Shown one piece after another: positions 5,092-58,145 of a stretch of DNA of 64,000 nucleotides. The notes beneath the pieces were generated by a model. That model worked only from the letters and a program-made list of their open reading frames with translations. It had not been told where the DNA came from and did not search any database. The DNA is from Dehalococcoidia bacterium. GTDB lineage: Bacteria > Chloroflexota > Dehalococcoidia > Lucifugimonadales > UBA3495. The stretch is from positions 75,576 to 139,575 of the forward strand of contig DAOUHZ010000147.1 in the NCBI GenBank assembly GCA_034428455.1. Reading direction: 5' to 3'. A program made the translations under genes and the position numbers. Every line of letters begins with the position of its first letter. Positions within the stretch are counted from its first letter, which is position 1.

Positions 5092-5172
5092 AGATAACGC
5101 GTTGGGGACACAGGCCGCGGGAAAGCCATGACGGCGTATTCCGGCGGCCTGTGCGTACCTGCGAGGCACACC

Positions 5173-5999: not shown

Positions 6000-6068
6000 C
6001 GGGTGGGATTCGCTGGCAACGGCGTTAGTTTCCCACGTTCCAGCGCACGCCATAAACGGAGGCTCACC

Positions 6069-8033
6069 ATGCCACTGCATCCGCAAGCGCAAGAGGTAAT
6101 TGACGCAACCCGAGCCCTGGGTTTGCCGCCAGCCAACACCGTCACTCCGGCGGAAGCCCGAGCCAACGCGGCCCAGCGGCCCCGAGCGCCCGGACCCGAG
6201 GTCGGCAAAGTCCAGGACCGCAGCGTCCCGGGACCGGCCGGCGACGTGCCGGTGCGCATCTATACGCCCGAGGGGAACGGACCGTTCCCCATCCTTGCGT
6301 GGTACCACGGCGGCGGCTGGGTCGTCGGCAACCTGGACTCGGCGGACGGCACGGCGCGCCACCTGTGCGCCGGCTCCCGCTGCGTGGTGGTGTCCGTGGA
6401 CTACCGTCTGTCCCCGGAAGCCAAGTTCCCCGAGCCTTTCGACGACTGCTACTACGCCACCATCTGGGCCAGTGACCACGCCGCGGAACTGGGCGGCGTG
6501 CCTGGCGTCGTGGCGGTGGGCGGCGACAGCGCTGGCGGCAACCTGGCGGCGGCGGTTGCCATCAAGGCCGCCGAAACCGGCGACTTCCGCGTCAGCCAGC
6601 AGCTCCTGGTCTACCCGGTGACCGACGTCAAGTTCGACACCGGCTCGTATATCGACAACGGGACGGGATACAACCTCGACCGGGACGTTATGATCTGGTA
6701 TTGGGACCAGTACCTCGCTGACCCTTCCCAGGCCGGCGATCCGCTGGCGGCTCCGTTACAGTTGTCCGCCGATTTCGACGCCATCGACGAACTGGCGCCC
6801 GCGCTGATCATTACCGCGGAATACGACCCTCTATGCGACGAAGGCGAAGCCTACGGACGCTTGCTCAACGAGCTGGGCGTGCCGGCGGAAAGCAACCGCT
6901 ACGACGGGATGATCCACGGTTTCTTCGGCATGGCCAGCATCATGGACACCGCGCGCGAGGCGATGGGCGATGCCTGCCGGTTCCTGCGCGGCGCGGTGGA
7001 CGACATGACCGAGGAGTACCACCGCCGCCACGAGGGTGACCCTGCGGCGATGCGCAAGCTGTTGGATCCCCAGGCCGCCCACGTCCTGGAGTTGTTCGAT
7101 TCGATGGGCATCAAACCCTTCCAGGAAATGGACGTTAACGAGTGCCGTGAGATCATGAACAATCGTCCCCGGCCGGAGGGCCCAGAAGTGGGCAAGGTCG
7201 AGGATCTCATCATCCGCAACGAGCACGGCAAGGAACCGGGCGACGTGCCGATTCGCATCTATACGCCCGCGACTCAAGGTCCGTGGGGCACGTTGGTCTG
7301 GTACCACGGCGGCGGTTGGGTGATCGGCAACGTTGAGACCGCCGATGTCACGGCGCGCGAGCTTTGCGTTGGCGGCAACTGCGTCGTCATCTCCGTCGAC
7401 TATCGCCTTGCCCCCGAGCACAAGTTCCCCACGCCTTTCGAGGACTGTCTCACGGCGACCATGTGGGCGATGCACAACGCCGACGCCCTGGGCAGCCGCG
7501 CCGACCTGATCGCGGTGGGCGGAGACAGCGCCGGTGGCAACCTCGCTGCGGCGGTGTGCCTGGCCCAGGATGACTTCCCACAGACTTTGGCGTTCCAGTT
7601 GCTGGTCTATCCGGCCACCGATTACGCCTACGATACGCGATCCTACAACGTCAACGGACAGGGTATGTTCCTTGAAACCGCCAGCATGCGCTGGTTCTGG
7701 GACCACTACATCGACAACACCGACCTCTCCGGCTACAACATCTTCGCTTCGCCCGGAAGGGCGCGCCTGTCGGCGGACCTACCGCCCGCCCTGGTGATTA
7801 CGGCGGAGTTTGATCCGCTCCGAGACGAAGGCGAAGCCTTCGCAAGCGCCCTGGAAGACGCGGGCGTGGAAACCACCCTCGTCCGCTACGACGGCGTCAT
7901 CCACGGTTTCTTCGGTCTCCCCCATGTCATCGACAAGGGCCGCCAGGCCGTCGACGCCGCCAGCGCTCAGCTTGCCGAGGTGTTCGGCGCGGCGCTGCGT
8001 GAACCCGAGGCTCTCGTTGCCGCCGACAACTGA
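6069..8033 (+). CDS. tandem double alpha/beta-hydrolase: two fused HSL/Aes-family esterase domains
   Basis: HGGGW, GDSAGGNLAAAV, DPL(C/R)DEGEA and (M/V)IHGFFG each occur twice, about 330 aa apart. ATG 6069 is preceded by GGAGG. The track ORF starts at 6003. Confidence 0.85.
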   Translation: MPLHPQAQEVIDATRALGLPPANTVTPAEARANAAQRPRAPGPEVGKVQDRSVPGPAGDVPVRIYTPEGNGPFPILAWYHGGGWVVGNLDSADGTARHLCAGSRCVVVSVDYRLSPEAKFPEPFDDCYYATIWASDHAAELGGVPGVVAVGGDSAGGNLAAAVAIKAAETGDFRVSQQLLVYPVTDVKFDTGSYIDNGTGYNLDRDVMIWYWDQYLADPSQAGDPLAAPLQLSADFDAIDELAPALIITAEYDPLCDEGEAYGRLLNELGVPAESNRYDGMIHGFFGMASIMDTAREAMGDACRFLRGAVDDMTEEYHRRHEGDPAAMRKLLDPQAAHVLELFDSMGIKPFQEMDVNECREIMNNRPRPEGPEVGKVEDLIIRNEHGKEPGDVPIRIYTPATQGPWGTLVWYHGGGWVIGNVETADVTARELCVGGNCVVISVDYRLAPEHKFPTPFEDCLTATMWAMHNADALGSRADLIAVGGDSAGGNLAAAVCLAQDDFPQTLAFQLLVYPATDYAYDTRSYNVNGQGMFLETASMRWFWDHYIDNTDLSGYNIFASPGRARLSADLPPALVITAEFDPLRDEGEAFASALEDAGVETTLVRYDGVIHGFFGLPHVIDKGRQAVDAASAQLAEVFGAALREPEALVAADN

Positions 8034-36613: not shown

Positions 36614-36622
36614 AGGGTGACC

Positions 36623-37171
36623 ATGTCCCACCATTACGACCAACACGACCACGAAAAGCTCCTACGCTGGAAGAACGATCTCGCCGCCGCGCCCATCGAG
36701 TCCAATGGCTTCCCGGCCATGGCCTTGTTCCTGGTCAAGCCGAACGCCACCGGTTCCCACGACATCTTCCGCAGGTACCGCGCCGAGTTCGAAAAGCGGG
36801 ACGCCAGCTTTGCCCACCTGGTGGTCTTCGGCATGCATGGCGTCTCCGCCACGGTGCGCGGCCTGCTGGACCAGGCTGGGCTTTCCGAGGACGACCTGCC
36901 AGTGATGATGCTTGCTCCCGCTGACGATCCCTGCGCCGTTACGGCGGTCCGGCTCCCGCCCGGCGAGAGCATCGAGGGCGCGGACGACCCCAACGGCGGC
37001 GGGACCTGCGACTATCTTGCCGCCTGGCAGGATGTCCTGGACCGCATCAGCATCACCAGGCCCGGCCGACCCCTCCGGCTCATGGGCGTCCAGGGCCAGA
37101 AACTGAACGGCGTGGACCTGCGCGAGTTGGCGGGCGCAGCGCTGGAGGCTGCGACAGGCACTTACAGCTAG
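36623..37171 (+). CDS. hypothetical protein
   Basis: ATG 36623 follows AGAGGG. The ORF begins about 10 nt after the upstream stop. No motif recognised. Confidence 0.45.
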   Translation: MSHHYDQHDHEKLLRWKNDLAAAPIESNGFPAMALFLVKPNATGSHDIFRRYRAEFEKRDASFAHLVVFGMHGVSATVRGLLDQAGLSEDDLPVMMLAPADDPCAVTAVRLPPGESIEGADDPNGGGTCDYLAAWQDVLDRISITRPGRPLRLMGVQGQKLNGVDLRELAGAALEAATGTYS

Positions 37172-37254
37172 CGCGTTCGATAATAGTCCTGCTAACCCCT
37201 CTCACCAGGCGGCAATGCGGCTGTTGCATTGGCGCCTCCGGAGACCTGTCCATC

Positions 37255-37761
37255 ATGTCCCTTGCGCAAGCCAATCGCCACACCGACCTCAGCCGTCGCC
37301 TGATGGAGCAGGCCAATTACGAACTGCATACCATGGGCGACCGGGTGCAGGCTTCGGACAAAGCTTCCGGCGCCGTGGCCCAGGCGGTGAAAGCAATCGC
37401 CGAGGACCGCAACTGGCGGCACCGCTCGCACAACTTGCGCCGGGATATTGTCGGCCTGCTGGCCGATGAGTTCCAGCAACCGCAAATCAGGCATTTGCAG
37501 GCCATCGCCGACCAGTTGCACGACAACTACTATGAGGACTGGTTAGGCGAAGCGCTGGTAACGGATCTGGTTGCCGACGTCAATTCGCTGATACCCCTCT
37601 TGTGGGAAGCGCGGGAACGGGGAGCGAACCAGGATTTCATCCCGACTCCCTTGCAGCAGAGGACCATCGACCGCCTCCTCATACCGGAAGAAGAAGCCCT
37701 TGCCGACGAAAGCATAGACTTGCCCCCGCCCATGCCTCCATTCAGGCCCCCGGCGGGCTGA
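37255..37761 (+). CDS. PaREP1-like (HEPN-like helical) small protein, copy A
   Basis: QASDKASGAVAQAVKAIAEDRNWRHRSH....LHDNYYED resembles the PaREP1 family pattern (QASEK.(W/Y).A....KA.A......W....H ... LH..FYE). It is paralogous over its full length to 42347-42883. Confidence 0.5.
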   Translation: MSLAQANRHTDLSRRLMEQANYELHTMGDRVQASDKASGAVAQAVKAIAEDRNWRHRSHNLRRDIVGLLADEFQQPQIRHLQAIADQLHDNYYEDWLGEALVTDLVADVNSLIPLLWEARERGANQDFIPTPLQQRTIDRLLIPEEEALADESIDLPPPMPPFRPPAG

Positions 37762-37809
37762 ACGGCTATCAGGGTTGGTCAGATTGAACGGAAGCCCGAC
37801 GGCGCCAGT

Positions 37810-40533
37810 TTGACTACGATGACCCTTATGATGCCGCTGTTGCCGACAATAACGCCGCGTGATTTCATCGCCAAATGGGATGGCGCAGATTTTGGCGAAA
37901 AGCAGGCCGCGCAGGAGATGTTCCTCGACATCTGCGGGATGGTAGGACACCCTACCCCGGTCGCCCACGGCGATTCGGAAGTCTTCACCTTCGAAAAGCG
38001 CGTGCCAGGCGGGTTCGCCGATGCTTATCTGGAAGGCCATTTCGTCTGGGAATTCAAAGGACGGGACCGTCAGCTGAGCGAGGCCGTGGTCCAGGCGGTG
38101 GGTTACGCCCGCCACCTCAAAAATCCACCGCTCATCGTGGCCTCGTCCTTCGAAACCGTACGCATTGAAACCAACTTCCCGGGAATGGAACTGGTACAGC
38201 ACAATATCGCGCTGTCCGAACTGGCCGAACCGGCTAACCTGGAATTGCTGCACAACGTTTTCCACAATCCGGACGCATTGCGACCCCAACGCAGTGTCGC
38301 CGCCGTCACGCAAGACACCGCTCACTTGTTCAGCCAAATCGTCGCCGATATGGAAGGATATACGGCCGACCCGGAACTGCTGGCCCGTTACCTGAATCGA
38401 ATCGTTTTCTGCCTTTACGCGGAGGATGCGGGCTTGTTGCCCGAGGACATACTTTCCGACATCCTGCATGTCAACCGGCGGCGTCCCGATTTGTCCAACC
38501 GGGCTTTGGCTAACCTCTTTGACCAGATGGCCGCGGGCGGGTTATTCGGCACGTACGAAATCACCCCCTTCAACGGCGACCTGTTCCGGGGCGACACGCC
38601 GGTAGAACTCAGCAGCGGTGCGATGCAGCGTCTCGGCGAGGCGGTCGTCGCCAACTGGCGCAGCATCGAGCCGTCCATATTTGGGACGCTGTTCGAGCGG
38701 GCGCTGGACGCATCCAAGCGGGCGCAGACGGGCGCGCATTACACCGGCGCGGAGGACATCGAGCTGGTGGTGGAGCCGGTGGTGATGACTCCGCTGCGCC
38801 GGGAGTGGGACGCCGCCCGGCAGGAAATCGACCTCCTGCTGGAGGAAGACAATGCCGACGCGGCGCGGGAACGGCTGAAGGCGTTTCGCCGGCGGCTGGA
38901 CTCGGTCACGGTGCTGGACCCGGCCTGCGGCAGCGGCAACTTCCTGTACATCGCCCTGCGGTCGCTGCTGGACCTGGAGCTGGCGGTCATTGACTTTGCC
39001 GCCGCCCGGGGTTGGCCTGGGCTGACGCCCAAGGTGCAGCCCAACCAAATGCTGGGATTGGAAATCAACCACTACGCGGCGGAACTGGCGCGCACCGCCC
39101 TGTGGATCGGCTACATCCAGTGGCACGAGGCCAACGGGTTTCCCTATACTCAGCGTCCCATCCTGACGCCGCTGGACACGATACGGCAGACCGACGCCAT
39201 CCTGGACCTGAGCGACCCCGACAACCCGGCGGAACCGGAATGGCCGGCGGCGGAGTTTATCGTGGGAAACCCGCCGTTTTTGGGCGGCAAACTGCTCCGC
39301 ACCGGCTTGAGCGACGAGTACGTGGACGCGCTGTTTCGGCAATACGACGGCAGGGTGCCGGCCGAGGCGGACCTGGTGTGCTACTGGTTCGATAAAGCGC
39401 AGCAAGCGGTTGAGGCTGGGGCGGTCAAACGGGCGGGCCTGCTGGCGACGCAGGGGATAAGGGGCGGCGCAAACCGGCGCGTGTTGCAGCGCATCAAGGA
39501 AACCGGCGACATCTTCATGGCGTGGTCGGATCACCCATGGGTGCTGGAAGGCGCGGCGGTGCACATCTCCATTGTCGGTTTCGACGACGGTTCCGAGACC
39601 GAGCGCGAACTGGACGGGCAGCCGGCTCCAGCTATCAACGCCAACCTGACGGCCGGGGTTGACCTGACGGCGGCGAAACGCCTGGGAGAAAACCTTGGCA
39701 TCGCGTTCATGGGCGACACCAAGGGCGGCCCGTTCGACATTTCCGGCGGACTGGCGCAAGAAATGCTCGCCAGTCCCAACCCGCATGGCAAAAGCAATGA
39801 GGGGGTGCTCAGGCCGTGGGTCAATGGGCGCGACATTACGGACCGTTCCCGAGGCATGTGGATCATCGACTTTGTTGATTTGTCCTTAGACCAAGCGGTC
39901 CTGTACGAAACACCTTTTGAGTACGTGGATGCTCATGTAAGGCCGCAACGAGAGCGCTCTCGATCAACGATTTCAAGCTGGTGGTTGCACGAACGTCCCC
40001 GACCTGATATGAGGCAGGCTCTGGAAAGCATTGACAGGTATATCGTGACTCCAAGAGTGTCCAAGCACAGATTGTTTGCCTGGATAGCGGGCAAAGTATT
40101 GGCGGACAGCGCCACGATTGCGCTTGCAAGAGACGACGACTACACTTTCGGCGTGTTGCACTCGCGCTTTCACGAGCTTTGGGCTTTGGCGATGGGAACG
40201 CAGTTGGAAACGCGGCCACGCTACACACCGACAACGTGCTTTGAGACGTTTCCGTTTCCGCGTCCGACGGAGGAGCAGCGGGAGGCCATCGGCGCGGCCG
40301 CGGCGGAGTTGAACCGGCTGCGGGAGGGCTGGCTGAATCCGGATGGGATCAGCGCGACGGAGCTGCGGAGGCGGACGCTGACGAACCTGTACAACCAGCG
40401 GCCGACGTGGCTGGACAACATCCACGCCCGTCTCGACGCGGCGGTGGCCGACGCCTACGGGTGGCCGGCGGACCTGGCGGAGGGGGAGATCCTGGAGCGT
40501 CTGCTGGCGCTGAACTTGGAGAGGGCGGGGTAA
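37810..40533 (+). CDS. MmeI-family Type IIL/IIG single-chain restriction endonuclease / N6-adenine DNA methyltransferase
   Basis: 907 aa. The N-terminal region is collinear with MmeI (FIAKW..EKQAAQEMFLDICGMVG..FADAYLEGHFVWEFKGRD, a D-x12-E-x-K nuclease motif). SAM motif I VLDPACGSGNFLY and motif IV FIVGNPPFLGG are present. The long C-terminal region carries WW.HERPR, KHRLF and FETFPFP, typical of this family. Confidence 0.8.
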   Translation: MTTMTLMMPLLPTITPRDFIAKWDGADFGEKQAAQEMFLDICGMVGHPTPVAHGDSEVFTFEKRVPGGFADAYLEGHFVWEFKGRDRQLSEAVVQAVGYARHLKNPPLIVASSFETVRIETNFPGMELVQHNIALSELAEPANLELLHNVFHNPDALRPQRSVAAVTQDTAHLFSQIVADMEGYTADPELLARYLNRIVFCLYAEDAGLLPEDILSDILHVNRRRPDLSNRALANLFDQMAAGGLFGTYEITPFNGDLFRGDTPVELSSGAMQRLGEAVVANWRSIEPSIFGTLFERALDASKRAQTGAHYTGAEDIELVVEPVVMTPLRREWDAARQEIDLLLEEDNADAARERLKAFRRRLDSVTVLDPACGSGNFLYIALRSLLDLELAVIDFAAARGWPGLTPKVQPNQMLGLEINHYAAELARTALWIGYIQWHEANGFPYTQRPILTPLDTIRQTDAILDLSDPDNPAEPEWPAAEFIVGNPPFLGGKLLRTGLSDEYVDALFRQYDGRVPAEADLVCYWFDKAQQAVEAGAVKRAGLLATQGIRGGANRRVLQRIKETGDIFMAWSDHPWVLEGAAVHISIVGFDDGSETERELDGQPAPAINANLTAGVDLTAAKRLGENLGIAFMGDTKGGPFDISGGLAQEMLASPNPHGKSNEGVLRPWVNGRDITDRSRGMWIIDFVDLSLDQAVLYETPFEYVDAHVRPQRERSRSTISSWWLHERPRPDMRQALESIDRYIVTPRVSKHRLFAWIAGKVLADSATIALARDDDYTFGVLHSRFHELWALAMGTQLETRPRYTPTTCFETFPFPRPTEEQREAIGAAAAELNRLREGWLNPDGISATELRRRTLTNLYNQRPTWLDNIHARLDAAVADAYGWPADLAEGEILERLLALNLERAG

Positions 40534-40560: not shown

Positions 40561-41193
40561 TCAAACCCCGGTAAGCCGCAGCGTCTCCTGCAACACCGAT
40601 TCCACATCCTCAGGCCCGGCGACCAGCAGGTGCGGGCGCGGCACCGGTTGGTCGGCGACGGCCATGCGCGAGTACACGTCCCAGGTAGCATCGCTCTGCG
40701 CGGCCTCTCCGACGCCCTTGGCCCGGTCCGTCAGGCGACGGCGCACCAGCTCCGAAGGGGCGGTGAACCGGATTATCGACGGCTCGACACCCACCGCATC
40801 CGCAGATTCATAAAGCGGACGCCGCACTTTCTCGTTCAGATTGGTGGCGTCGAACACCACCGAGTACCCGTCCCGCAGGTAGCCCCGGGTCAGCACGTGC
40901 ATCGCGGAAAACACCCGACGGTGCTCTCTGCGGCTGTAGCTCGGTCGGTCGACCAGCAGCTTGCGGGTCCGGTCGCTGTTTAGCCACACAAACGGCGCGC
41001 GGCGGACCAACTCGCGGGCGAAATGGGACTTGCCGGTACCAGGCAAGCCACAGAGGATCACCAGGCTTGGCGACGCGTGGGTGGTTTTAGGCAACCCTTC
41101 TGCGTACGCTGATCGCAGCCGCTCCAAGTCCGGCGGACGAAGACCCCCCGCCGTCCAGGACTTGCGCGGCGACGGAGACGTTGATCCGGACAC
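40561..41193 (-). CDS. P-loop kinase-like ATPase (AAA_33 / zeta-toxin-like fold)
   Basis: Walker A VILCGLPGTGKSHFAREL and a Walker B-like VVFDATN. The protein is 210 aa. Confidence 0.6.
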   Translation of the reverse strand: MSGSTSPSPRKSWTAGGLRPPDLERLRSAYAEGLPKTTHASPSLVILCGLPGTGKSHFARELVRRAPFVWLNSDRTRKLLVDRPSYSRREHRRVFSAMHVLTRGYLRDGYSVVFDATNLNEKVRRPLYESADAVGVEPSIIRFTAPSELVRRRLTDRAKGVGEAAQSDATWDVYSRMAVADQPVPRPHLLVAGPEDVESVLQETLRLTGV

Positions 41194-41235: not shown

Positions 41236-41511
41236 CTAGGCTAACAAAGCTCGAAGAGCGTATTGAACCACCACCAGCACAATCATCACCACCAACGGGC
41301 TGAAATCGATCATTCCGGTCTGCGGCAGCATCCGCCGGATGGGCCCCAGCACCGGCTCGGTCAGCGAAAACACCACATCGTAGAGGCGAACCAGAATATC
41401 CGGCGCCCCGTTCCCCTGCATCGTCATGTACTGCACCACGAAGCCCAGGATGATGCGGGCCAGCAGCAGCAGATAGCACAGCGTGATGAATAGGGTGATT
41501 AGCTCAAGCAT
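41236..41511 (-). CDS. yggT: YggT family membrane protein
   Basis: 91 aa with two TM segments flanking ..LTEPVLGPIRRMLP..G.IDFSPLV.., the YggT signature. Confidence 0.8.
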   Translation of the reverse strand: MLELITLFITLCYLLLLARIILGFVVQYMTMQGNGAPDILVRLYDVVFSLTEPVLGPIRRMLPQTGMIDFSPLVVMIVLVVVQYALRALLA

Positions 41512-41538: not shown

Positions 41539-42342
41539 TTAGTTCTGGCCCAGGCGCACGGATTTCAGGTACGCGGCATTGACCGCGTCGACCAGGGCCG
41601 CCGGCACGCCGGCGCGTTCGAGAGCCTGCAAGCCCTCCGCCGTGGTGCCGCCCGGCGAGGTGACCATGTCCTTGAGCTCGCCGGGGTGCCGGCCGGTTTC
41701 GGAAACCAACTGCACGCTTCCCTTCACTGTCTGCAACGCCAGCCGTCGAGACACGTCGCGCGGCAATCCGACGTACACGCCGGCGTCGATCAGGGCCTCA
41801 ACGATGAGGAACACGTATGCCGGGCCGCTGGCGCTGAGCGCGGTCGCCATGTCCAGGTATTTTTCGTCATCGACGTAGATCGCATCGCCGATGGTGGAGA
41901 GCATGGCGTCGGTGGCTTCCCGATGCGCCTCGCTCACGGAGGACGCACAGGTCCACATCGTCATGCCTTCGCCGATCTGCGCTGGCGTGTTGGGCATGAC
42001 TCGGATGATGCCATCGTGTTTCATTCCATTGGCAAGCGAAGTCATCGTGGCGCCGGCCACTATGGACATAAGCGACTTCCCGCCGCCGAACGAACCGCCG
42101 ATGTCCGCGTAAACCTTCGGGAGATCCTGCGGCTTCACCGCCAGCGCAACCAGTTCGGATGCGTTGACCACGGCGCCGTTTTCGCCCGAGACCTCTACCC
42201 CATACCGCTCGGCAAGGTAGTCTCGCCGCGCCGGCACCGGCTCTCCCACCATAACGTCGCCAGCTTCGGCGACGCCGGCGTTGAGCATCCCGCCCAGGAT
42301 AGCCTCGGCCATCGTTCCACCGCCGATGAACCCGATATTCAT
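41539..42342 (-). CDS. proC: pyrroline-5-carboxylate reductase
   Basis: MNIGFIGGGTMAEAI Rossmann start, ..RVMPNTPA.. and ..SPGGTTAEGL.. are ProC signatures. The track ORF starts at 42393. Confidence 0.9.
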   Translation of the reverse strand: MNIGFIGGGTMAEAILGGMLNAGVAEAGDVMVGEPVPARRDYLAERYGVEVSGENGAVVNASELVALAVKPQDLPKVYADIGGSFGGGKSLMSIVAGATMTSLANGMKHDGIIRVMPNTPAQIGEGMTMWTCASSVSEAHREATDAMLSTIGDAIYVDDEKYLDMATALSASGPAYVFLIVEALIDAGVYVGLPRDVSRRLALQTVKGSVQLVSETGRHPGELKDMVTSPGGTTAEGLQALERAGVPAALVDAVNAAYLKSVRLGQN

Positions 42343-42349
42343 TGCGCTA
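42339..42349. repeat. 11-bp direct repeat copy 1 (TCATTGCGCTA) at the copy B stop / proC start junction
   Basis: It is identical to 42880-42890. On the minus strand it reads TAG-CGCA-ATG, that is, the stop of the PaREP1-like ORF, 4 nt, then the proC start. Confidence 0.85.
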
Positions 42350-42883
42350 GTCCTCGTTGCCCGCCAAGCCGTGCTTGCGGGAGAATCCCACATCGGAGGT
42401 ATCGCCCATTGCCAATTGTTCGTTCCCGGTGAGGCGGCGCAGCCGTCGCAACTGTGTGTTGCTGCTGATCGTGAACGGACGGGGAGGCATGGCCGTCAGG
42501 TCGATCAATGCCTCCATCACCCGCTCAACTCCGTCGATCATTTCGGACAACTCTTCCGGGCTGCGGTGATTTTCGTAAAAGTTCTCGTGGCCGACGAAGT
42601 ATGCCAACGAAAGAGCATATGCCTGATCAGTGTCGAAGCCGTATTCCAGCACGAGCTGGCTAAGTACTGCGTGAACGTCCTGATGGGACTTATGCCGCCA
42701 GCCGCGTTGTTCGGCGATGGCTTTCACCGGGTGCACCACGGCGCCCCAAGCTTTCTCACCCGCCTGCAAGCGGCTGCCATTAGACAGTTCTTCGCGAGCC
42801 TGGATGATCATACGCAAGCTGATCCGGAGACGGTCTTCGGTACTTTGAACGCCGTGCGCCGGCAAATCCGGTGCGGTGGTCAT
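42347..42883 (-). CDS. PaREP1-like (HEPN-like helical) small protein, copy B
   Basis: QAGEKAWGAVVHPVKAIAEQRGWRHKSH....GHENFYEN has the same motifs as copy A. ATG 42883 lies 4 nt after the pdxA stop, and the ORF's own stop lies 4 nt before the proC ATG. GC is somewhat lower than in the flanking genes. Confidence 0.5.
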   Translation of the reverse strand: MTTAPDLPAHGVQSTEDRLRISLRMIIQAREELSNGSRLQAGEKAWGAVVHPVKAIAEQRGWRHKSHQDVHAVLSQLVLEYGFDTDQAYALSLAYFVGHENFYENHRSPEELSEMIDGVERVMEALIDLTAMPPRPFTISSNTQLRRLRRLTGNEQLAMGDTSDVGFSRKHGLAGNED

Positions 42884-42890
42884 TGCGCTA
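42880..42890. repeat. 11-bp direct repeat copy 2 (TCATTGCGCTA) at the pdxA stop / copy B start junction
   Basis: It is identical to 42339-42349. On the minus strand it reads TAG-CGCA-ATG, that is, the pdxA stop, 4 nt, then the start of the PaREP1-like ORF. Confidence 0.85.
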
Positions 42891-43931
42891 ACCCTCGCCC
42901 CAGCCGTCCGTGAGGCCGTCGCCCCGGGCGAAAGCCACTGCCATACGGATCGATTCCACCATTGACGTGTGGTCGGCCAGGTTCTTGCCGGCGATGTCGA
43001 ACGCCGTTCCGTGGTCAACCGACGTCCGAATGAACGGCAGCCCGAGGTTGGCGGTGATGCTCTCTTCGAAGCCGTACACCTTGACCGGGATGTGCCCCTG
43101 GTCGTGGTACATGCAAAGGGTCACGTCGTACCGGTCTTGGATCGCCTGGTGGAAGATGATATCTGCCGGCACCGGCCCGATGGCGTTGATGCCTTCGCTC
43201 TGCGCCTGCTGCACCGCCGGCGCGATCTCTTCCGCTTCCTCGCTCCCCAGCAGCCCGCCGTCGCTGCCGTGCGGGTTCAACGCGGCGACGCCGATGCGAG
43301 GATTCGCAAATCCCCACTTGCGGAAGTTGTCGTCGGTGAGCCTCAGGTAGTCGAGGATCCGGTCCTTCTTCACGTAATCGCAGGCTACGCGCAGTGACCG
43401 GTGCGTTGTCAGGTGCACCACCCGCAGGTTCTTGGCCATCAGCATGGTGGCGACGGTCTTCGCGCCCGAAAGTTCCTGGAGCAACTCCATGTGCCCGATG
43501 GCTTCGTATCCGGCCAGCGCGGCGGCTTCCTTGTTCAGCGGAGCCGTCGCCAGGCCGTCGACCACACCGGCCATTGCCAACTGTCCGGCCTTGCTGACCC
43601 ACTCCATGGCCGCCCTGCCACACGGTACGCTCAGCTGTCCGACGGTGATGTCCTCGGGATTAAGGTTCCCGATGTCCACCACGTCCACCACCGCAGGATT
43701 GTCGCCGGCCGAAGTGGGGTCGTCGGTGTGGTTGATCCCCATCGGAAGTCCGGTCAACCGGGCCGCCTCTTCCATCGCATGGACATTGCCCACCACCACG
43801 GGTCGACACGCAGCGTACACCCGCGGATCGGCCAGCGCCTTGACCACCACCTCCGGCCCGATGCCGCAGGGGTCGCCCATAGTGATCGCAATGGCCGGTC
43901 GCATCGTTTCGTTTTCCGTCCCTGATACCAT
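42888..43931 (-). CDS. pdxA: 4-hydroxythreonine-4-phosphate dehydrogenase
   Basis: IAITMGDPCGIGPE, ..TAPLNKEA.., ..GH.E.L.. and HGTAFDIAG are PdxA signatures. The start is 43931 (GAGG RBS) or 43904. Confidence 0.85.
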   Translation of the reverse strand: MVSGTENETMRPAIAITMGDPCGIGPEVVVKALADPRVYAACRPVVVGNVHAMEEAARLTGLPMGINHTDDPTSAGDNPAVVDVVDIGNLNPEDITVGQLSVPCGRAAMEWVSKAGQLAMAGVVDGLATAPLNKEAAALAGYEAIGHMELLQELSGAKTVATMLMAKNLRVVHLTTHRSLRVACDYVKKDRILDYLRLTDDNFRKWGFANPRIGVAALNPHGSDGGLLGSEEAEEIAPAVQQAQSEGINAIGPVPADIIFHQAIQDRYDVTLCMYHDQGHIPVKVYGFEESITANLGLPFIRTSVDHGTAFDIAGKNLADHTSMVESIRMAVAFARGDGLTDGWGEG

Positions 43932-44102: not shown

Positions 44103-44639
44103 ATGGCCTCACCAGAAAATTTCGAGCAGGACCGCGGCAAATTGATTGAGGCCGTGATTTACCTGAGCGAGCTGTCCATTGACGACCCCGAGTTTGGCCT
44201 GCCCAAATTGACCAAGATGCTCTATTACGCTGATTGCGAGTCCTATATGGAGTACGGTCAGCCTATCACCGGAACCACTTACCTCCATTTTCCCCACGGC
44301 CCCTATCCGGAGAACTGGTACCAGATAAGGGAACGGATGGAGCAGGATGGCGACGTGGAGGTACTCCACGATACCGCCGCTGGAGGGTATCACAACTACT
44401 GGTTGCTGCCTCTCCGCCCGCCTGACTTGGAACGGCTCACCCTCGAAGACCGCAAGGCGTTGGAGGCGCAAGTGAAGCGTTTTGCCGGCTTCAACGCCGC
44501 GGGCATCGAGCAATACTCCCGCCAGGACATCGGCTGGCGGGCCACTGAAGATGGGCAACCAATCTCATACGAATTGGCTGGCGTCTTCGCTCCAACGCCG
44601 AGCGTGCGCGAATTCCGAGAATCCCGAGTCGCTAGCTAA
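44103..44639 (+). CDS. Panacea-domain (DUF4065, SocA/PanA-like) antitoxin-type protein
   Basis: PKLTKMLYYADCESYMEYGQPITGTTYLHFPHGPYP matches the DUF4065 core (KL.KLLYYA......G.P......A...GPV). ATG 44103 is preceded by AGGAGG. The track ORF starts at 43950. Confidence 0.7.
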   Translation: MASPENFEQDRGKLIEAVIYLSELSIDDPEFGLPKLTKMLYYADCESYMEYGQPITGTTYLHFPHGPYPENWYQIRERMEQDGDVEVLHDTAAGGYHNYWLLPLRPPDLERLTLEDRKALEAQVKRFAGFNAAGIEQYSRQDIGWRATEDGQPISYELAGVFAPTPSVREFRESRVAS

Positions 44640-45027
44640 CTTTCCTCGCTCCCAGCAGCCAAACGGTGACGTCATCTTCTATGATTTCGTAGCGGATTTC
44701 TATCCTACCGTGGCGATTAGCAGCAGAACGGGGAAACCCGATGCGTCTGACGTTATCAGGCTCTCCTGGGATAAGTGCTCCGGTCATGGGATACTCCGAC
44801 AATCGCCTTTTTATGCCTTCAAGCGTAGCAGGATCCGCCATCTGATTAATCCAACCTTCAATGATACCGCTCCGCCAATCCGACTGAAAGGATTCCCGCT
44901 CCGCGACCGAATACCGACCTCGCTGGTGTGGAATCACTACCCCGCATCTCCATTTCGCATCGTTTGACCATCGCCGAAATCCAACAAGCCAGAGCGGATT
45001 ATCATCCGCCCCGGCCCGGTCGGTCAT
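44632..45027 (-). CDS. RelE/ParE-superfamily-like toxin candidate with an N-terminal extension of about 37 aa
   Basis: The C-terminal ..GEPDNVRRIGFP....HGRIEIRYEIIEDDVTVWLLGARK resembles the RelE/ParE core (R.R.G.YRI.Y.I.....V.I..I.HR). ATG 45027 overlaps the nrdJ stop (ATGA). An alternative GTG start is at 44937. This stretch has clearly lower GC. Confidence 0.45.
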   Translation of the reverse strand: MTDRAGADDNPLWLVGFRRWSNDAKWRCGVVIPHQRGRYSVAERESFQSDWRSGIIEGWINQMADPATLEGIKRRLSEYPMTGALIPGEPDNVRRIGFPRSAANRHGRIEIRYEIIEDDVTVWLLGARKVS

Positions 45028-48000
45028 TCGCACTTGTTCCACCCGCACGAATAGCAGCTCAGGCAGCCCTCCTGGTTAACCACGCCTCCATTGCACTCCG
45101 GGCATCGCTGGGAAAAGCCCGTCGGATACATTGGCGCTGGCGTATGACCGTTGATACCGTTCTCCGTGGGCCCCCCGGCCAGGCTCAATTGCACGCCGGC
45201 AGGCGCGCTGTTCAGCGCATCGCCGCCATTGGCGATCTTGTCCAGCACCAGGGCCACCGCGTCGGGGCCGGATCCCACCAGCACGCCATCGTCCCACGCC
45301 GGGCAGCACGTTATCCCACGCAATTGCCGGGTGACTTCGCTGGGATCGATGCCCCCACGCAGCGCCAGCGATACCAGCCGTGAAACTGCCTCCAGCAGCG
45401 CAGCATCGCATCCGCCGGCCTTGCCCATGGCGCCGAACACTTCAAAGGGCATCCCGTTGGAATCCATGTTCACGGTGACGTACATGTTGCCGTGTCCGGT
45501 CCGCACCCGTTCCGTGATGCCGTGGATCTGACGGGGTCGGCGCCGGGGCGCCCGGTGGCCGAGCCCGATGATCTTCACGGCGTCCGGGTCGTCAGCGTCA
45601 GCCGGATTATCGGCTTCGGATGTTTCTCCGCTAGTGCCGGTGCTCAACACCTGCTCAGACTTGCTGCCGTCGCGGTAAACGGTGATCCCTTTGCATCCCA
45701 GGGTGTAGGCGGACCGGTAGGCCTCCGCCACGTCTTCCACTGTCGCCTCGCTGGGGAAGTTGATGGTCTTGGACACCGCGTTGTCCGTGTATTCCTGGAA
45801 GGCCGCCTGCATCCGCACGTGCCACCGGGGATCGATGTCGTGGGACACCCGGAACACGCTCTTGACCCATTCCGGCACGTCCAGGTCCTCCAGCGAGCCG
45901 ACGCTGGCCAACTGCTCCATGAGTTCCGGCGTGTAAAACCCTTCGTGGCGAGCCACCGCTTCCAGGAAGGCGTTCCCCTCCACCAGGCGAGTGTTGTCCA
46001 TCACGTTCCGCACGTAGGACAGGGCGAACAGCGGCTCAATCCCGCTGGATGCCCCGGCGATGATGCTGATCGTTCCCGTTGGCGCAATGGTCACCGGCGC
46101 CGAGTTGCGCATGGGCGAGGAATCCGGGCCCTTGTTGTACGCGCTGTTTTCCCATTCCGGGAAGGGGCCCCGGGACTCGGCAAGTTCGCACGAAGCCCGG
46201 TAAGTCTCTTCCCGGATGAACTTCATCACCTCGCGGGCCAGTTCCAGGGCTTCCTCGCTGTCGTAGGGCACGCCTATCTGGATCAGCAGGTCCGACCATC
46301 CCATGACGCCCAGGCCGATACGGCGCGTCCGCCGGCTCATGTCCGCGATTTCCTGGATCGGATAGTCGTTCATGTCGATCACGCAGTCGAGCATGTGCAC
46401 CGCCGTCGTGATCACTTCGCTCATCCGTTCCCAGTCGACTTCAACGTCGTCCGCCGTGTAGCGAACCATGCGCGTCAGGTTCAGCGAACCCAGGTTGCAG
46501 GATTCGTAGGGCAGCAGCGGCTGCTCTCCGCAGTTGTGGACGTAGAACCCGTTTGCGTCGAACGCGTTTACCCCGGGAACCGCCACGTCGAACACGTCCT
46601 CGTGATTGTCGGCTTCTATCTCGGTGACGCGGGCCATGAAAGACCTATCGTTGTCTGGAGTTTGCGAAAGTTCAAGCCACCGCTCAAAGCCCTCCGGCTT
46701 GACGACGGCGTTGAATCTGTCGAAATGCTCGTTGGCAACTAGTAGCTCCGGGTAACCTTCCCCATACCAAATGCTGGACTTTATAGCCAGTCGCAGCAAC
46801 ATCCGTTGCAAACCCTGCAAGATCGTTTCATCTGCCTCGCGGGGAGCAATGTTGATGCACTTCGGGTTTTTACCAGTGTGCTCCTTGTGGCGAAGGGACA
46901 GCCCCCTGAAAAATCCGATGTAGAACTCCCCGGATGTGCGCTCCAGATCAGGAGTCACATCTGGACACTTCGGGTCGATTTTCAAACACTGTCTGATTTC
47001 GCCGAGAAGCGCCTGCTCTTGAGATGTGGGTTCTTGCGGATCCTTTTTGGCGCGACGCGTGTGAGGGTCGACAATTATGCGATGTGGGTTCTTCATAAAG
47101 AACCTTCCCATCAAGATGCCTTCCTCCTCACCGTATTGACCATGCCATTGAGCAGAGTCGCAATGGGAGTTCAGCCTGACGACATCGCCCTTTTGCAATT
47201 CACCAGCCCTTTGCCATCCTCGGTCAGTCATCACCGGATGGTCGGCGGTGAGGCGAAGGGTGTAGCCTTCTCGGGTGGCAATCTTGATTAAGGCCCGGTG
47301 GCCTGTAGGGAAGAATCCCCGTCCGTCGGTGTTGTGGCCCCGGCCGTCAACCATCGCCTCGAACGGGACACCCACCAGTTCCCTGACTTGACGCGGCCCA
47401 TCCGAGGTTTGCACCCAGGTGTCGGCCGTCACGCAAGGATTGGTCGATTCGATATCCCCCAGCTGCGGGTTGGGATTGTCGCGGTTGATGCGATCCAGGA
47501 ACACGATGCCGGGGTCGCCGGTGCGCCAGGCCAGCTCGGTCATCTGCCGAAACACTTCCCCGGCGTTCAGCTGCCCGTCAACCTGCCCGGTGCGCGGATT
47601 TATAAGATCGTAATCCTCTCCCTTTTCCGCCTTGACCATGAAGTCTTCCGTGACCGCCACCGAGATGTTGAAGTTGCTCAGATGGGTTCCGTCTTCTTTG
47701 GACCTGATGAACCGGAGCACGTCGGGGTGCGTCACGTGCAGGATGCCCATGTTGGCGCCCCGGCGGGTGCCGCCCTGCTTGACCACGTCGGTCGCCGCAT
47801 CGAAAGCGTTGATGAAGCTCACCGGGCCCGACGCCACTCCTCCGGTGGAACCGACGACGTCGCCCTCCGGGCGCAGGCGCGAAAAGGCAAAGCCCGTGCC
47901 GCCGCCGCTCTTATGGATCAGGGCCGTTTCCTTCACCTTGGTGAAGATGGAATCGAGCGAATCCTCCACCGGCAGCACGAAGCACGCCGACAGTTGTTGC

Positions 48001-48359
48001 AGTTCACGCCCGGCGTTCATCAAAGTTGGTGAGTTGGGGAGGAACTCCAGCCGGCGCATCACCCGGTAGAACCGCTCCTCCACCGCGGCGCGCTCCGCTT
48101 CGGTCGCCCCGTATTCCAGCTCCGATTGGGACAGGTTGTGCGCCACCCGGCGGAACATCCCTTCGGGGTCTTCCAGCACGTTCCCTTCCCGGTCCTTGGA
48201 AAGATACCGACGCTGCAGCACGACCCTCGCGTTATCCGTCAGGGTCCCGTTGCGATCGTTGTACTCGCCGGCTATGCCGGCCTCGACCATTGCGTCGCGT
48301 ATGCGCCGCCTCACCGAATCAGCCCTGCCTGCCGGTTCAATTCCCGTAGCCGTTGCCAC
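45024..48359 (-). CDS. nrdJ: adenosylcobalamin-dependent (class II) ribonucleotide reductase, intein-containing
   Basis: NSPTLMNAG, CFVLPVEDS, GGGTGFAFSRLRP and STNP|..intein..|CGEQPL are present, plus a C-terminal Cys-rich zinc ribbon (CPECNGG..CLSCYSCGW). GTG 48359 lies 8 nt after GGGAGG. The track ORF starts at TTG 48383. Confidence 0.9.
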   Translation of the reverse strand: MATATGIEPAGRADSVRRRIRDAMVEAGIAGEYNDRNGTLTDNARVVLQRRYLSKDREGNVLEDPEGMFRRVAHNLSQSELEYGATEAERAAVEERFYRVMRRLEFLPNSPTLMNAGRELQQLSACFVLPVEDSLDSIFTKVKETALIHKSGGGTGFAFSRLRPEGDVVGSTGGVASGPVSFINAFDAATDVVKQGGTRRGANMGILHVTHPDVLRFIRSKEDGTHLSNFNISVAVTEDFMVKAEKGEDYDLINPRTGQVDGQLNAGEVFRQMTELAWRTGDPGIVFLDRINRDNPNPQLGDIESTNPCVTADTWVQTSDGPRQVRELVGVPFEAMVDGRGHNTDGRGFFPTGHRALIKIATREGYTLRLTADHPVMTDRGWQRAGELQKGDVVRLNSHCDSAQWHGQYGEEEGILMGRFFMKNPHRIIVDPHTRRAKKDPQEPTSQEQALLGEIRQCLKIDPKCPDVTPDLERTSGEFYIGFFRGLSLRHKEHTGKNPKCINIAPREADETILQGLQRMLLRLAIKSSIWYGEGYPELLVANEHFDRFNAVVKPEGFERWLELSQTPDNDRSFMARVTEIEADNHEDVFDVAVPGVNAFDANGFYVHNCGEQPLLPYESCNLGSLNLTRMVRYTADDVEVDWERMSEVITTAVHMLDCVIDMNDYPIQEIADMSRRTRRIGLGVMGWSDLLIQIGVPYDSEEALELAREVMKFIREETYRASCELAESRGPFPEWENSAYNKGPDSSPMRNSAPVTIAPTGTISIIAGASSGIEPLFALSYVRNVMDNTRLVEGNAFLEAVARHEGFYTPELMEQLASVGSLEDLDVPEWVKSVFRVSHDIDPRWHVRMQAAFQEYTDNAVSKTINFPSEATVEDVAEAYRSAYTLGCKGITVYRDGSKSEQVLSTGTSGETSEADNPADADDPDAVKIIGLGHRAPRRRPRQIHGITERVRTGHGNMYVTVNMDSNGMPFEVFGAMGKAGGCDAALLEAVSRLVSLALRGGIDPSEVTRQLRGITCCPAWDDGVLVGSGPDAVALVLDKIANGGDALNSAPAGVQLSLAGGPTENGINGHTPAPMYPTGFSQRCPECNGGVVNQEGCLSCYSCGWNKCE
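46533..47435 (-). mobile_element. intein (301 codons) inserted in the NPCGE active-site motif of nrdJ
   Basis: It begins with Cys (CVTADTWV, block A), has block B TLRLTADHP, and ends ..DANGFYVHN followed by the +1 Cys of CGEQPL. The central part (about 46740-47100) is visibly low in GC and carries only degenerate LAGLIDADG-like strings (GILMGRFFMKN, FYIGFFRGLSL). Confidence 0.85.
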
Positions 48360-48502
48360 CGCAAGTACCTCCCGTAAATTCAACTATATTGATCAAACTT
48401 ATGATTAACAGATAAAGAACGACGATTTGCATGGGCGTACCGTGCACCGCTGTAGTCTAAACGATCAACCTTCTCGCGCGCCGGGGTCTATCGAATTGAT
48501 AC

Positions 48503-56143: not shown

Positions 56144-57514
56144 ATGATGGACATCGCGCCCGACGGTTTATCGATCGGCTCCGTCTTGTTGCAGGTGGGG
56201 GAAACCTCTGGCGGATTATCGATGCCCTGGAGTTTGCAGCTATCGCTGCTGGCCCTGAGTTTCCTGGGAGTAATGTTTTTCACCAGCGCCGAGGCGGCAT
56301 TGGTAGCGGTCAACAAGATCCGGATCCAGTACCTGGCCGGCCAGGGCAACGCTGCCGCCCGCGCGGTAAACCACGTTCTGTCGCAACACGAAAAGTTCTT
56401 TGCCACCATTCTCCTGAGCCAGAACGCCTTCACCATCTTCGCCACGGCTCTGGGCACCGCCCTGGCTGCTGACCTGCTCCAGGACGCCGGTTCAGCGGCG
56501 TTGCTGACCACCCTGATCCTTACGGTCACGATCTCCATCTTCGGTGAGATCACGCCCAAGACTTTGGCGGCAACCTACTCGGAGCGTTGGTCCCTGGCGG
56601 CAGCCTACCCCGTTCGCTGGATGATGCTGCTGAGCACTCCGTTCATTTATCTCTTCACCGTGGTCCCGCGCCTCATCTACAAGGCCCTGGGGACCTCATC
56701 CGACGGTTGGCAAACCACGTTCACCGAAGGCGAACTGCGGATGATGATCGACCTTTCCAGTCAGCAGGGAGCGGTGGAATCCGACGAAGCCGAGCGTCTC
56801 CATCGGGTGTTCAACTTCCGCGACCGCCGGCTCAGCGAAATCATGACGCCGCGCACAGAGATCATCTGGATCGAAAAAGACACCACCCTCGACGAATTCC
56901 TGGCCCTCTATGCGGAGCACAGCCACACCCGGTTCCCCGTTTTCGAGGGTAGCCAGGAGACCGTCCTGGGCGTATTGTCCAACAAAGAAGTGCTCATCGC
57001 TCAGGGTCGCGGTGAAATCGGTCCCCAGGACGCGGTCACCGAAAACATGCGCCCAGTCGATTTCATCCCCGAGACCGTCACCGTGTCCGACGCCTTTGAC
57101 GCGATGCAGGAAAAGCGGCTTTCCATGATGCTGGTGACCAACGAATACGGCGGAATCGCGGGCCTGGTCACGATGAAGCAACTCGTCGGCGTCATCGTCG
57201 GCACCGTCGTCGACGACGACCCGCCAGCCCTGACCGCCGACAGCCACATGGCTCAGCTACCCGACGGCGCTTACCTCCTGGGCGGCGGCATGACCATCAT
57301 CGAGATCAACGACCGCCTCCATTCCGCGGGCATCGAGGTTCCCGAGGGTGACTATCAGACCATCGCTGGCCTCGTGCTGCACGAACTGGGCGAAATTCCC
57401 AGAGAAAACGACACAGTCAAGACCGGCAACCTGGAAATCACCGTCACCGGCATGGCGGGAGTGCGCGTGAACCAGGTGCGCCTGACGGTGGTTGATCTCC
57501 CGGCCGAGGACTAA
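56144..57514 (+). CDS. CNNM/HlyC-CorC family transporter (DUF21-CBS pair-CorC_HlyC)
   Basis: An N-terminal DUF21 membrane domain (FFTSAEAALV, FGEITPK), a CBS pair (..IMTPR..I.) and a C-terminal CorC domain (TIAG.VL..LG.IP) are present. The start is uncertain (56144 or 56222). Confidence 0.8.
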   Translation: MMDIAPDGLSIGSVLLQVGETSGGLSMPWSLQLSLLALSFLGVMFFTSAEAALVAVNKIRIQYLAGQGNAAARAVNHVLSQHEKFFATILLSQNAFTIFATALGTALAADLLQDAGSAALLTTLILTVTISIFGEITPKTLAATYSERWSLAAAYPVRWMMLLSTPFIYLFTVVPRLIYKALGTSSDGWQTTFTEGELRMMIDLSSQQGAVESDEAERLHRVFNFRDRRLSEIMTPRTEIIWIEKDTTLDEFLALYAEHSHTRFPVFEGSQETVLGVLSNKEVLIAQGRGEIGPQDAVTENMRPVDFIPETVTVSDAFDAMQEKRLSMMLVTNEYGGIAGLVTMKQLVGVIVGTVVDDDPPALTADSHMAQLPDGAYLLGGGMTIIEINDRLHSAGIEVPEGDYQTIAGLVLHELGEIPRENDTVKTGNLEITVTGMAGVRVNQVRLTVVDLPAED

Positions 57515-57518
57515 CCGA

Positions 57519-58145
57519 ATGAAGCTGCACCTGGTCCGCCACGGCGAGACCGACATCAACGCGTCGGGTCGCCTGCAAGGCACCACCAACTCGACCCTCA
57601 CCTCCCGGGGAAGGGCCCAGGCCCGTGAATTGGCGGTGGCCAGTCTCACGTGGAATCCGGTGGCGGTGTACTCCAGTCCGCTGCAGCGGGCTCGGGGCGT
57701 CGCCGGCGCCATCGCCGACCTGTCCGGTCTACCCGTGACGGATGAGCCCCGCATAATCGAGATGGACATGGGAGATCTGGAGGGCGTGACCGTCCAGGAG
57801 ATGCGCGACGGCTGGCCCGATCTGTACCAGGGCTGGCGACAGGACGCCAGCAGCGTCACCATGCCCGGCGGCGAATCCCTGGGCGACGTTCAACTTCGCG
57901 CCATGGCGGCCATCGAGGAACTGGATCAGCGTTACGACGCCGAAGACACGATCATCGCCGTCACCCACAACTTCACCATTCGCTGCATCGTCGCCGCCGT
58001 CATCGACCTTCCCCTCGCCAACATCAATCACATGGACCTGTCCCTGGGGAGTCGCACTACCATCACCTCCGGACGACGCGGGCGACGCCTCGCTACCTTC
58101 AACGCCGTTGACCACCTCACTCCCGACAACCGCACGGCGTATTAG
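57519..58145 (+). CDS. histidine phosphatase (phosphoglycerate mutase-like) family protein
   Basis: MKLHLVRHGETD..N contains the RHG catalytic motif. A later ..VTHN.. His region is present. Confidence 0.8.
   Translation: MKLHLVRHGETDINASGRLQGTTNSTLTSRGRAQARELAVASLTWNPVAVYSSPLQRARGVAGAIADLSGLPVTDEPRIIEMDMGDLEGVTVQEMRDGWPDLYQGWRQDASSVTMPGGESLGDVQLRAMAAIEELDQRYDAEDTIIAVTHNFTIRCIVAAVIDLPLANINHMDLSLGSRTTITSGRRGRRLATFNAVDHLTPDNRTAY

Follow-up and report, generated by a model that had tools for sequence, protein, structure and literature searches.

A PaREP1-family gene between pdxA and proC in Dehalococcoidia: probable origin by one ancient insertion with duplication of the target junction

Introduction

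PaREP1 and PaREP8 are families of paralogues known from Pyrobaculum and other Crenarchaeota, covered by Pfam family PF05942 and assigned to the HEPN-T clade (Anantharaman et al., 2013; PMC3710099). The HEPN-T/PaREP1 group is devoid of the canonical Rx4-6H motif, the arginine being absent while the histidine is conserved (PMC3710099), and archaeal PaREP1/8 tandem paralogues mark variable regions in Pyrobaculum (PMC3558965). Here, we describe a PaREP1 gene carried by a 64-kb stretch of DNA (hereafter the window), whose host was judged from the nearest genomes to be a Dehalococcoidia (Chloroflexota) bacterium. This gene, called copy B, is located between pdxA and proC. Copy B probably derives from a single ancient event, in which a PaREP1 (HEPN-T) gene was inserted between pdxA and proC in the ancestor of a genus-level clade of Dehalococcoidia and a target of about 40 nucleotides (nt) was duplicated.

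Like the described PaREP1/PaREP8 proteins, copy B scores above the gathering cut-off of the Pfam family and is predicted to adopt a HEPN fold; judged from sequence alignment, it may also share the absence of Rx4-6H and the conserved histidine. In contrast to the family as described, which is archaeal (Pfam; PMC3710099), its host is bacterial.

The junction between pdxA and proC

The features on which the argument rests are the following:

42888..43931, minus strand: pdxA, 347 aa as called in relatives (other possible starts at 43907 and 43943); PF04166 PdxA, 5.7e-100; protein tail …GDGLTDGWGEG
42880..42899, minus strand: 20-nt junction module J1, GGCGAGGGTTAGCGCAATGA, with GAGG at 42896-42893 as putative Shine-Dalgarno of copy B within the last pdxA codons
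42880..42890, minus strand: junction repeat copy 1, TAG-CGCA-ATG-A, that is pdxA stop, 4-nt spacer, copy B start
42347..42883 (stop included), minus strand: copy B, PaREP1/HEPN-T, 178 aa; PaREP1 PF05942, 2.7e-11, and a weak HEPN match
42339..42358, minus strand: 20-nt junction module J2, AACGAGGACTAGCGCAATGA, with GAGG at 42355-42352 as putative Shine-Dalgarno of proC within the last copy B codons
42339..42349, minus strand: junction repeat copy 2, TAG-CGCA-ATG-A, that is copy B stop, 4-nt spacer, proC start
41539..42342, minus strand: proC, pyrroline-5-carboxylate reductase, 267 aa; Pfam P5CR, 1.4e-38

Copy B is bracketed by an 11-bp direct repeat, TCATTGCGCTA, found at 42339-42349 and 42880-42890. 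These are its only exact copies in the window; they are spaced by 541 bp, and 16 of 18 positions are identical when the alignment is extended. Read on the minus strand, both copies give TAG-CGCA-ATG-A across a stop/start boundary. The initial annotation had reported this repeat and the TAG-CGCA-ATG reading at the two boundaries of copy B, with pdxA and with proC, and both were reproduced. It had also considered that the 11-mer might simply be a common junction throughout the genome. This is at odds with the two exact copies in the window and with the rarity of the corresponding geometry (GAGG-N2-stop-N4-ATG), which occurs once more in the 64 kb and not at all in the flanks of the relatives. 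The other site in the window lies at 57506-57521 on the plus strand, at the end of an open reading frame (ORF) at 56144-57514.

Taken alone, the 11-mer is weak evidence of a duplication, since an exact direct repeat of 11 nt or longer turns up in about 7% of shuffles of the 731-nt region. It becomes significant because it is in register with both stop/start boundaries, because its geometry is rare elsewhere and because it recurs at 20 of 21 cassette boundaries, the comparative data weighing most.

For this comparison, nine genomes carrying the cassette were examined: the window itself (WIN), L081, L082, L084, L085 and L106-L109. The conspecific contigs L110 and L111 have the same arrangement, and L083 repeats L082. 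More broadly, homologues of copy B form 381 clusters (90% identity) at E <= 1e-3, the best 120 of which are 66-93% identical, while a metagenome scan with the family alignment returned two close loci only (L085 and L086), the remainder being distant homologues at 30-40% identity. Between pdxA and proC, six of the nine genomes carry one cassette and three carry two in tandem (L084, L106 and L109). A 4-nt spacer is present at 20 of the 21 cassette boundaries and GAGG is invariant in those 20; the 20-nt junction consensus is GGCGAGGGATAGCGCGATGA, with CGCR as spacer consensus. Relatives carrying the ORF with unrelated junctions, which would have spoken against an insertion, are thus not what was found. 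First and last junctions of one genome proved no more alike than junctions of different genomes (permutation p = 0.27 and 0.23). No sign of concerted evolution, or of gene conversion from one of these junctions to the other, was hence detected, and continuous gene conversion is not needed to explain the data.

Alignment of the gene tails in these relatives indicates that the 11-mer is what persists of a longer duplicated junction of about 40 nt, composed of the last 8-9 pdxA codons (…GLTDGWGEG, with the invariant GAGG), the stop, the 4-nt spacer and ATGA. At the protein level, PdxA ends in …GDGLTDGWGEG and the cassettes in …GLTDGGEG or a variant thereof. In nucleotide sequence, the pdxA tail and that of the last cassette are identical at 37 of 46 positions with a single 3-nt gap (L084, L107). 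When only the 35 nt upstream of the stop are considered, z reaches 4.5-6.4 in L084, L085, L107 and L108, above all 300 controls taken from coding sequence of the same genome. The duplicated junction put forward in the initial annotation, as a target-site duplication or a recombination footprint, is consequently retained as a duplicated target junction, with the qualification that its length would be about 40 nt, C-terminal pdxA codons included, and not 11.

The direction of the copying was deduced from the distribution of the tails. Outgroup PdxA proteins end in GNGL[AS]DF, uniformly over about 90 clusters at 77-83% identity, which identifies 'GL[AST]D' as an original feature of PdxA. In contrast, PaREP1 proteins encoded at other loci terminate with GFSKNH and have no pdxA-like tail. 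It follows that the pdxA 3' end was copied into the cassette, rather than a cassette end into pdxA.

GAGG, the stop, the 4-nt spacing and the ATG are all functional elements, so that both junctions could in principle have been selected independently for a stop/Shine-Dalgarno/start coupling signal, with no duplication at all; the frequency of exact 11-mer repeats among the shuffles goes in the same direction. This explanation is nevertheless very improbable. In relatives the homology runs about 27 nt further into the coding sequence, including GLTD and the 3-nt indel, the spacer bases (CGCR) are shared without obvious function, and the geometry is rare at other gene junctions. Independent selection is thus largely refuted by the tail alignments and the z scores.

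Empty sites and direction of gain

The initial annotation had proposed to search related genomes for empty sites, and such sites were found. In the sister lineage L114-L118, whose PdxA and ProC are respectively 87% and 83% identical to those of the window, the synteny is identical (ribonucleotide reductase (RNR)-pdxA-proC-yggT-kinase-pepA) and there is no cassette. The sister junction reads …TDAWAIS-TGA-(37 nt)-ATGAAC and ends with …GGTTAGCCTA-ATGAAC; the TAG-CCTA-ATGAAC located directly upstream of proC is close to the predicted pdxA-TAGCGCAATG-proC. The 20-mer leading up to the proC start, CGGGACGGTTAGCCTAATGA, contains TAG-4 nt-ATGA and agrees with J1 of the window in 15 of its 20 positions. 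Since the empty site of the sister lineage is homologous to the repeat, the core of the repeat is a target sequence older than the insertion. Synteny with and without the cassette likewise agrees with the claim that the ORF was inserted into a pdxA-proC-yggT string.

The spacer of the sister lineage (L114 4545-4581) contains an internal tandem duplication of about 16 nt, GGCGGACGGTTGAAC / GGCGGGACGGTTAGCC, and an in-frame TAG 36 nt past the pdxA TGA, 4 nt ahead of the proC ATG.

Six outgroups (L001, L002, L004, L006, L007 and L010; PdxA 48-79% identical) have kept pdxA-proC-yggT and have no PaREP1 gene there, with mutually unrelated pdxA-proC spacers ranging from overlapping stop/start to 207 nt. 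Since seven lineages outside the clade are without the cassette, the most parsimonious scenario is one gain in the common ancestor of the cassette-bearing genomes. Alternatively, a PaREP1 gene between pdxA and proC could be ancestral in the wider group and have been deleted in the sister lineage and the outgroups. Direct repeats around the gene would favour such deletions, and the features of the L114 spacer just described are signs of rearrangement. This scenario is decidedly improbable: all seven outside lineages lack the gene and have mutually unrelated spacers, the pdxA-native codons in the cassette tail require a target duplication, and the PdxA tail is uniform across the outgroup clusters.

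At the strain level, exact matches to the ProC of the window gave cassette-bearing contigs only, L110 being identical over the whole locus. In a distant member of the Dehalococcoidia (L005, region 5142-6840), the pdxA-proC gap measures 2.2 kb and contains a RelE/ParE-like 98-aa ORF together with a 221-aa ORF on the opposite strand; the presence of this RelE/ParE-like gene indicates that accessory genes have landed between pdxA and proC on more than one occasion.

Mobility functions and other PaREP1 sites

No transposase, integrase or other recombinase was found by Pfam among the neighbours of the cassette over 37.2-48.4 kb of the window (the interval to which the scan of individual proteins was confined), nor was a recombinase found within about 10 kb of the cassette in any of the nine genomes. 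The genes encountered over this interval are RNR, the Panacea gene, pdxA, proC, yggT, the kinase and MmeI, and the neighbours in relatives are of like kind. The cassette itself has no terminal inverted repeats and no attC-like structure, its non-coding DNA being limited to 4 nt, and no convincing internal promoter or terminator was recognized in it.

PaREP1 genes also occur elsewhere. They are found co-directionally between rplA and rplJ (L112 3501-4025) and between argF and der (L086 3501-4028), and after rpmB in one to three copies (L113 3501-4016; L105 2856-4516). The first of the three L105 copies has an in-frame stop. Three of these four other contexts (the rplA, two rpmB and argF sites) are related to the 50S subunit; a literature search returned no paper on HEPN genes in ribosomal protein operons. 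No duplication of the upstream gene end was detected at the rplA, rpmB and argF sites or at copy A, a distant paralogue located elsewhere in the window, the best local matches being 8-12 nt long and at chance level. What the duplication records is therefore a single event, as opposed to a mobility mechanism shared by the whole family.

These data bear on two further explanations. The first one, an active site-specific mobile element of the integron type, with the junction acting as an att-like site and a recombinase encoded elsewhere, is quite unlikely. It would account for arrays of one or two cassettes with a near-identical boundary module at every junction, for the mixing of at least three cassette lineages among arrays and for a cassette history decoupled from the flanks, all of which are seen. 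It is contradicted by the lack of a recombinase within about 10 kb in nine genomes, by essentially no non-coding DNA, inverted repeats or attC-like structure, and by breakpoints which fall inside the cassette near codon 130 instead of at the junctions. In addition, the rplA, rpmB, argF and MmeI sites are without the module, and the junctions decay like neutral or weakly constrained sequence with no concerted evolution.

The second one invokes a transposon or insertion sequence, now without its transposase, which would have left a classical target-site duplication. The direct repeat does consist of target sequence, and the insert between its copies has a lower GC content. Target-site duplications usually measure 2-15 bp, and a duplication of about 40 nt is far above this range. 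Moreover, there are no terminal inverted repeats and no transposase remnant, and the insert is exactly one ORF body without non-coding ends near start or stop, which makes this explanation extremely improbable. Of the mobile single-gene cassette envisaged by the initial annotation, only a weak form is supported, namely recombinational exchange at a fixed site. Autonomous mobility is not, given that recombinase, inverted repeats and attC are lacking and that other sites are without the duplication.

Age, selection and allele exchange

The insertion is ancient, since the ProC proteins of genomes sharing it diverge by as much as 19%, and it has become fixed in a clade of genus rank; between conspecific strains, the locus shows no difference. 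A recent event, as the initial annotation could be read, does not fit these observations.

The alleles of the cassette have had a more eventful history than its position. Among the three pairs formed by WIN, L081 and L082, synonymous divergence (dS) of the HEPN core (codons 1-130) is 0.08-0.12 versus 0.44-0.48 for pdxA+proC (Fisher p 2e-5 to 4e-8), while the opposite is seen between L085 and L108, with a dS of 1.42 for the core versus 0.56 for pdxA+proC (Fisher p = 3e-5). Because synonymous divergence of the core and of the flanks differs in this way, cassette alleles appear to have been exchanged independently of the flanks. Synonymous constraint was considered as a cause of the low cassette dS and was ruled out by the opposite pattern in L085 versus L108. 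In the same way, recent allele exchange explains the low core dS among WIN, L081 and L082 better than a constraint exerted by an antisense ORF. Such an ORF, of 210 aa, spans the whole cassette (42281-42913, plus strand); it is probably an artefact of the high GC content.

The 3' third of the cassette has a separate history, with divergence breakpoints near codon 130, inside the cassette and not at the junctions. The cassette tree is incongruent with the ProC tree and comprises at least three cassette lineages, mixed among arrays. Furthermore, a 'PPxxE' tail variant is found at the end of PdxA (L109, P0128) as well as of PaREP1 proteins (P0041, P0051, P0004), and its occurrence in both points to probable crossovers between junction repeats. 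The ratio dN/dS (nonsynonymous to synonymous divergence) of the cassette gene is 0.12-0.38 versus 0.02-0.08 for its neighbours, indicating purifying selection. Collectively, copy number (1-2) and allele content are dynamic, and both are explicable by homologous recombination.

The PaREP1 protein

Copy B matches PF05942 with 43.8 bits (cut-off 24.4, E = 2.7e-11) and copy A with 47.1 bits. The AlphaFold2 model of copy B has a predicted local distance difference test score (pLDDT) of 83 and a predicted template modelling score of 0.79, and its top Foldseek matches (2hsb, 2q00, 1wol, 1ufb and 1o3u) are all HEPN proteins, 2hsb and 2q00 being the best. A HEPN core (about residues 15-130) is followed by a conserved basic segment, PPRPFTI..QLRRLRRLTG, and by the disordered pdxA-derived tail, with pLDDT < 50 for residues 174-178. 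At the position which aligns with the 2hsb motif, Rx4-6H is absent and a near-invariant G98-H99-E-N-F-Y-E-N105 is found instead, the equivalence being drawn from the alignment.

No minimal nucleotidyltransferase (MNT) gene lies beside copy B, copy A or any homologue examined, and the PADLOC models gave no meaningful match for copy A, copy B or their neighbours, this protein being without a model in PADLOC. Because of its family membership and its evolutionary behaviour, the PaREP1 protein is probably an RNA-binding or RNase-like factor, with a putative RNA-directed role in conflict or defence.

Genomic neighbourhood

Further features of the locus are the following:

41236..41511, minus strand: yggT, Pfam YGGT, 1e-15; last conserved member of the pdxA-proC-yggT string
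40561..41193, minus strand: AAA_33-type kinase
37810..40533: MmeI-family restriction-modification (RM) gene, directly downstream of copy A
37255..37761, plus strand: copy A, distant PaREP1 paralogue with 33% identity to copy B, upstream of the MmeI gene and without the junction repeat

As the initial annotation had noticed, the insert is lower in GC than both of its neighbours (58.8% versus 64.7-64.9%), and the GC content at third codon positions follows the same trend (0.715 versus 0.81-0.84). Its paralogue does adjoin an RM enzyme, copy A being directly upstream of the MmeI-family gene.

The slot downstream of the AAA_33 kinase is variable among relatives (window 36617-40533; L081 6384-8543; L082 6378-8537). 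It holds an MmeI-type RM gene in WIN, L082 and L110 and McrBC in L081; in the window, the MmeI gene is accompanied by PaREP1 copy A and by a 184-aa ORF of unknown kind. In L084, L106-L108 and L114, pepA comes directly next. This slot looks like a small defence hotspot.

On the other side of the locus, the gene for the RNR large subunit (45024-48383, minus strand) carries an intein (Pfam Intein_splicing). Among relatives, L107 and L114 have an intein with a LAGLIDADG domain, and L081, L082, L084 and L108 have none. Between RNR and pdxA, a Panacea/SocA-domain gene (44103-44639, plus strand) overlaps tail-to-tail a 138-aa ORF without Pfam match (44632-45048, minus strand). This module is present in WIN, L081, L107, L108 and L110 and absent from L082, L084 and L114, and it may be a PanA-type toxin-antitoxin pair.

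Proposed mechanism

A mechanism for the origin of the cassette can be proposed on the basis of the anatomy of the junctions. The insertion event would have copied a target of about 40 nt, comprising the last 8-9 pdxA codons (GLTDGWGEG), the stop, the 4-nt spacer and ATGA. The inserted ORF would have lost its own stop and would end in the copied pdxA tail. The cassette and proC would each have received the same initiation module, consisting of GAGG in the last codons of the upstream gene, the stop, 4 nt and ATG. In this module, the invariant GAGG, found 9 nt upstream of each ATG in an otherwise disordered and variable tail, would act as Shine-Dalgarno element, and the stop-4 nt-start layout would allow translational coupling. 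Having no promoter or terminator of its own, the cassette would be co-transcribed and translationally coupled with the operon. The duplicated module would thereby keep proC expressed and make the insertion tolerable.

Once in place, the direct repeats, the conserved flanks and the conserved stretches within the cassette gene would serve ordinary homologous recombination. Its expected outcomes are arrays of one or two cassettes, tail variants swapped between pdxA and cassettes, and allele replacements or sweeps independent of the flanks.

The original event may have been a recombinase-independent duplicative insertion, for instance by replicative template switching at microhomologies. Two candidate microhomologies are present: ATGA, shared by the PaREP1 and proC starts, and ACGGC, where the body of PaREP1 (…K-H-G, as in L086) meets pdxA (…D-G-L-T). 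Template switching is our preferred guess, offered as speculation and with low confidence.

Several points weigh against this scheme. The role of GAGG as Shine-Dalgarno element and the translational coupling are putative, template switching is deduced from anatomy only and the donor locus was not found. The homology of the tails past 18 nt is at background in the window (z = 0.6) and likewise in L082 (z = -1.1); since the tail has decayed to that extent in the window, the claim of about 40 nt depends on the relatives. The nearest empty site is an imperfect image of the state before insertion, as its pdxA ends 36 nt earlier at a TGA and its spacer measures 37 nt. Finally, no genome without a cassette was found inside the cassette clade and repeat-mediated excision was not observed, PdxA clusters of this clade on long contigs, such as P0125 and P0131, being outside this count.

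A broader proposal, which we regard as rather unlikely, is twofold. The module of about 40 nt would be a portable junction for translation initiation and recombination, by which HEPN cassettes could be added, removed or swapped in frame within an essential operon, without a dedicated recombinase. The bacterial PaREP1 family would in addition lodge downstream of highly expressed housekeeping genes that are hard to delete (rplA, rpmB, argF/der, pdxA/proC). If so, such placement would guarantee expression and shield the gene from deletion, and it might reflect a ribosome-linked function, in line with the three 50S-related contexts among the four other sites.

Relation to known systems

The locus does not reveal a new mobility machine. 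It provides a clean and datable example of how an accessory, conflict-type gene can enter a putatively coupled essential operon harmlessly, the operon being presumably unharmed because the insertion duplicated the proC initiation region and the last codons of pdxA. Owing to the repeats and the conserved flanks, the site has become a small slot for variable cassettes, of which it holds one or two; at least three lineages of alleles are represented, and replacements or sweeps have followed. PaREP1/HEPN-T, described as archaeal, is extended here to a large expansion in Dehalococcoidia (> 380 clusters), in which the genes are recurrently placed within strings of housekeeping and ribosomal-protein genes.

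Beyond the sequence and fold similarities with the PaREP1/PaREP8 families of archaea, tandem arrays of paralogues are found here as well, with two genes at pdxA-proC (L084, L106, L109) and three after rpmB (L105), and the genes are similarly tied to variable genome regions and to RM genes (PMC3558965). In contrast to these families, the genes are co-directional inside housekeeping strings (pdxA-proC, rplA-rplJ, rpmB, argF-der) with 4-5-nt spacers, their products carry an extra conserved basic C-terminal segment, and there is no MNT or restriction endonuclease partner.

Integron cassettes are also promoterless single-gene units which share one orientation and a fixed, repeat-bounded site, and vary in number and content. 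However, every defining feature of integrons which was tested failed, with no IntI, attI, attC or cassette-borne non-coding DNA. The boundaries are instead duplicated host coding and translation-initiation sequence, the exchange breakpoints lie within the ORF and the arrays contain 1-2 units only. Similarly, integrative elements which duplicate the 3' end of their target (attL/attR, such as islands at the 3' ends of tRNA or other genes) leave the target gene intact, their direct repeats being made of its 3' end, as observed here. They differ by their integrase, which is missing at this locus, where the 0.54-kb unit is a single ORF reading into the duplicated target tail.

Microhomology-mediated duplicative insertion, as in microhomology-mediated break-induced replication or fork stalling and template switching (MMBIR/FoSTeS), resembles the locus in several respects: a duplication of tens of nt, short identities at both joints (ATGA and ACGGC) and no element machinery. 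Such events are known mainly from eukaryotic and experimental bacterial rearrangements, whereas the present case is deduced from anatomy, with no donor found. Finally, core-gene-flanked defence hotspots and polymorphic toxin-immunity arrays share with this site a fixed slot, diverse and fast-evolving alleles, swaps by homologous recombination and mosaic histories, and a RelE/ParE-like gene occupies the pdxA-proC gap of one distant relative. In contrast to such hotspots, the slot lies inside a putatively coupled operon and is occupied by a single small HEPN gene without a PADLOC match.

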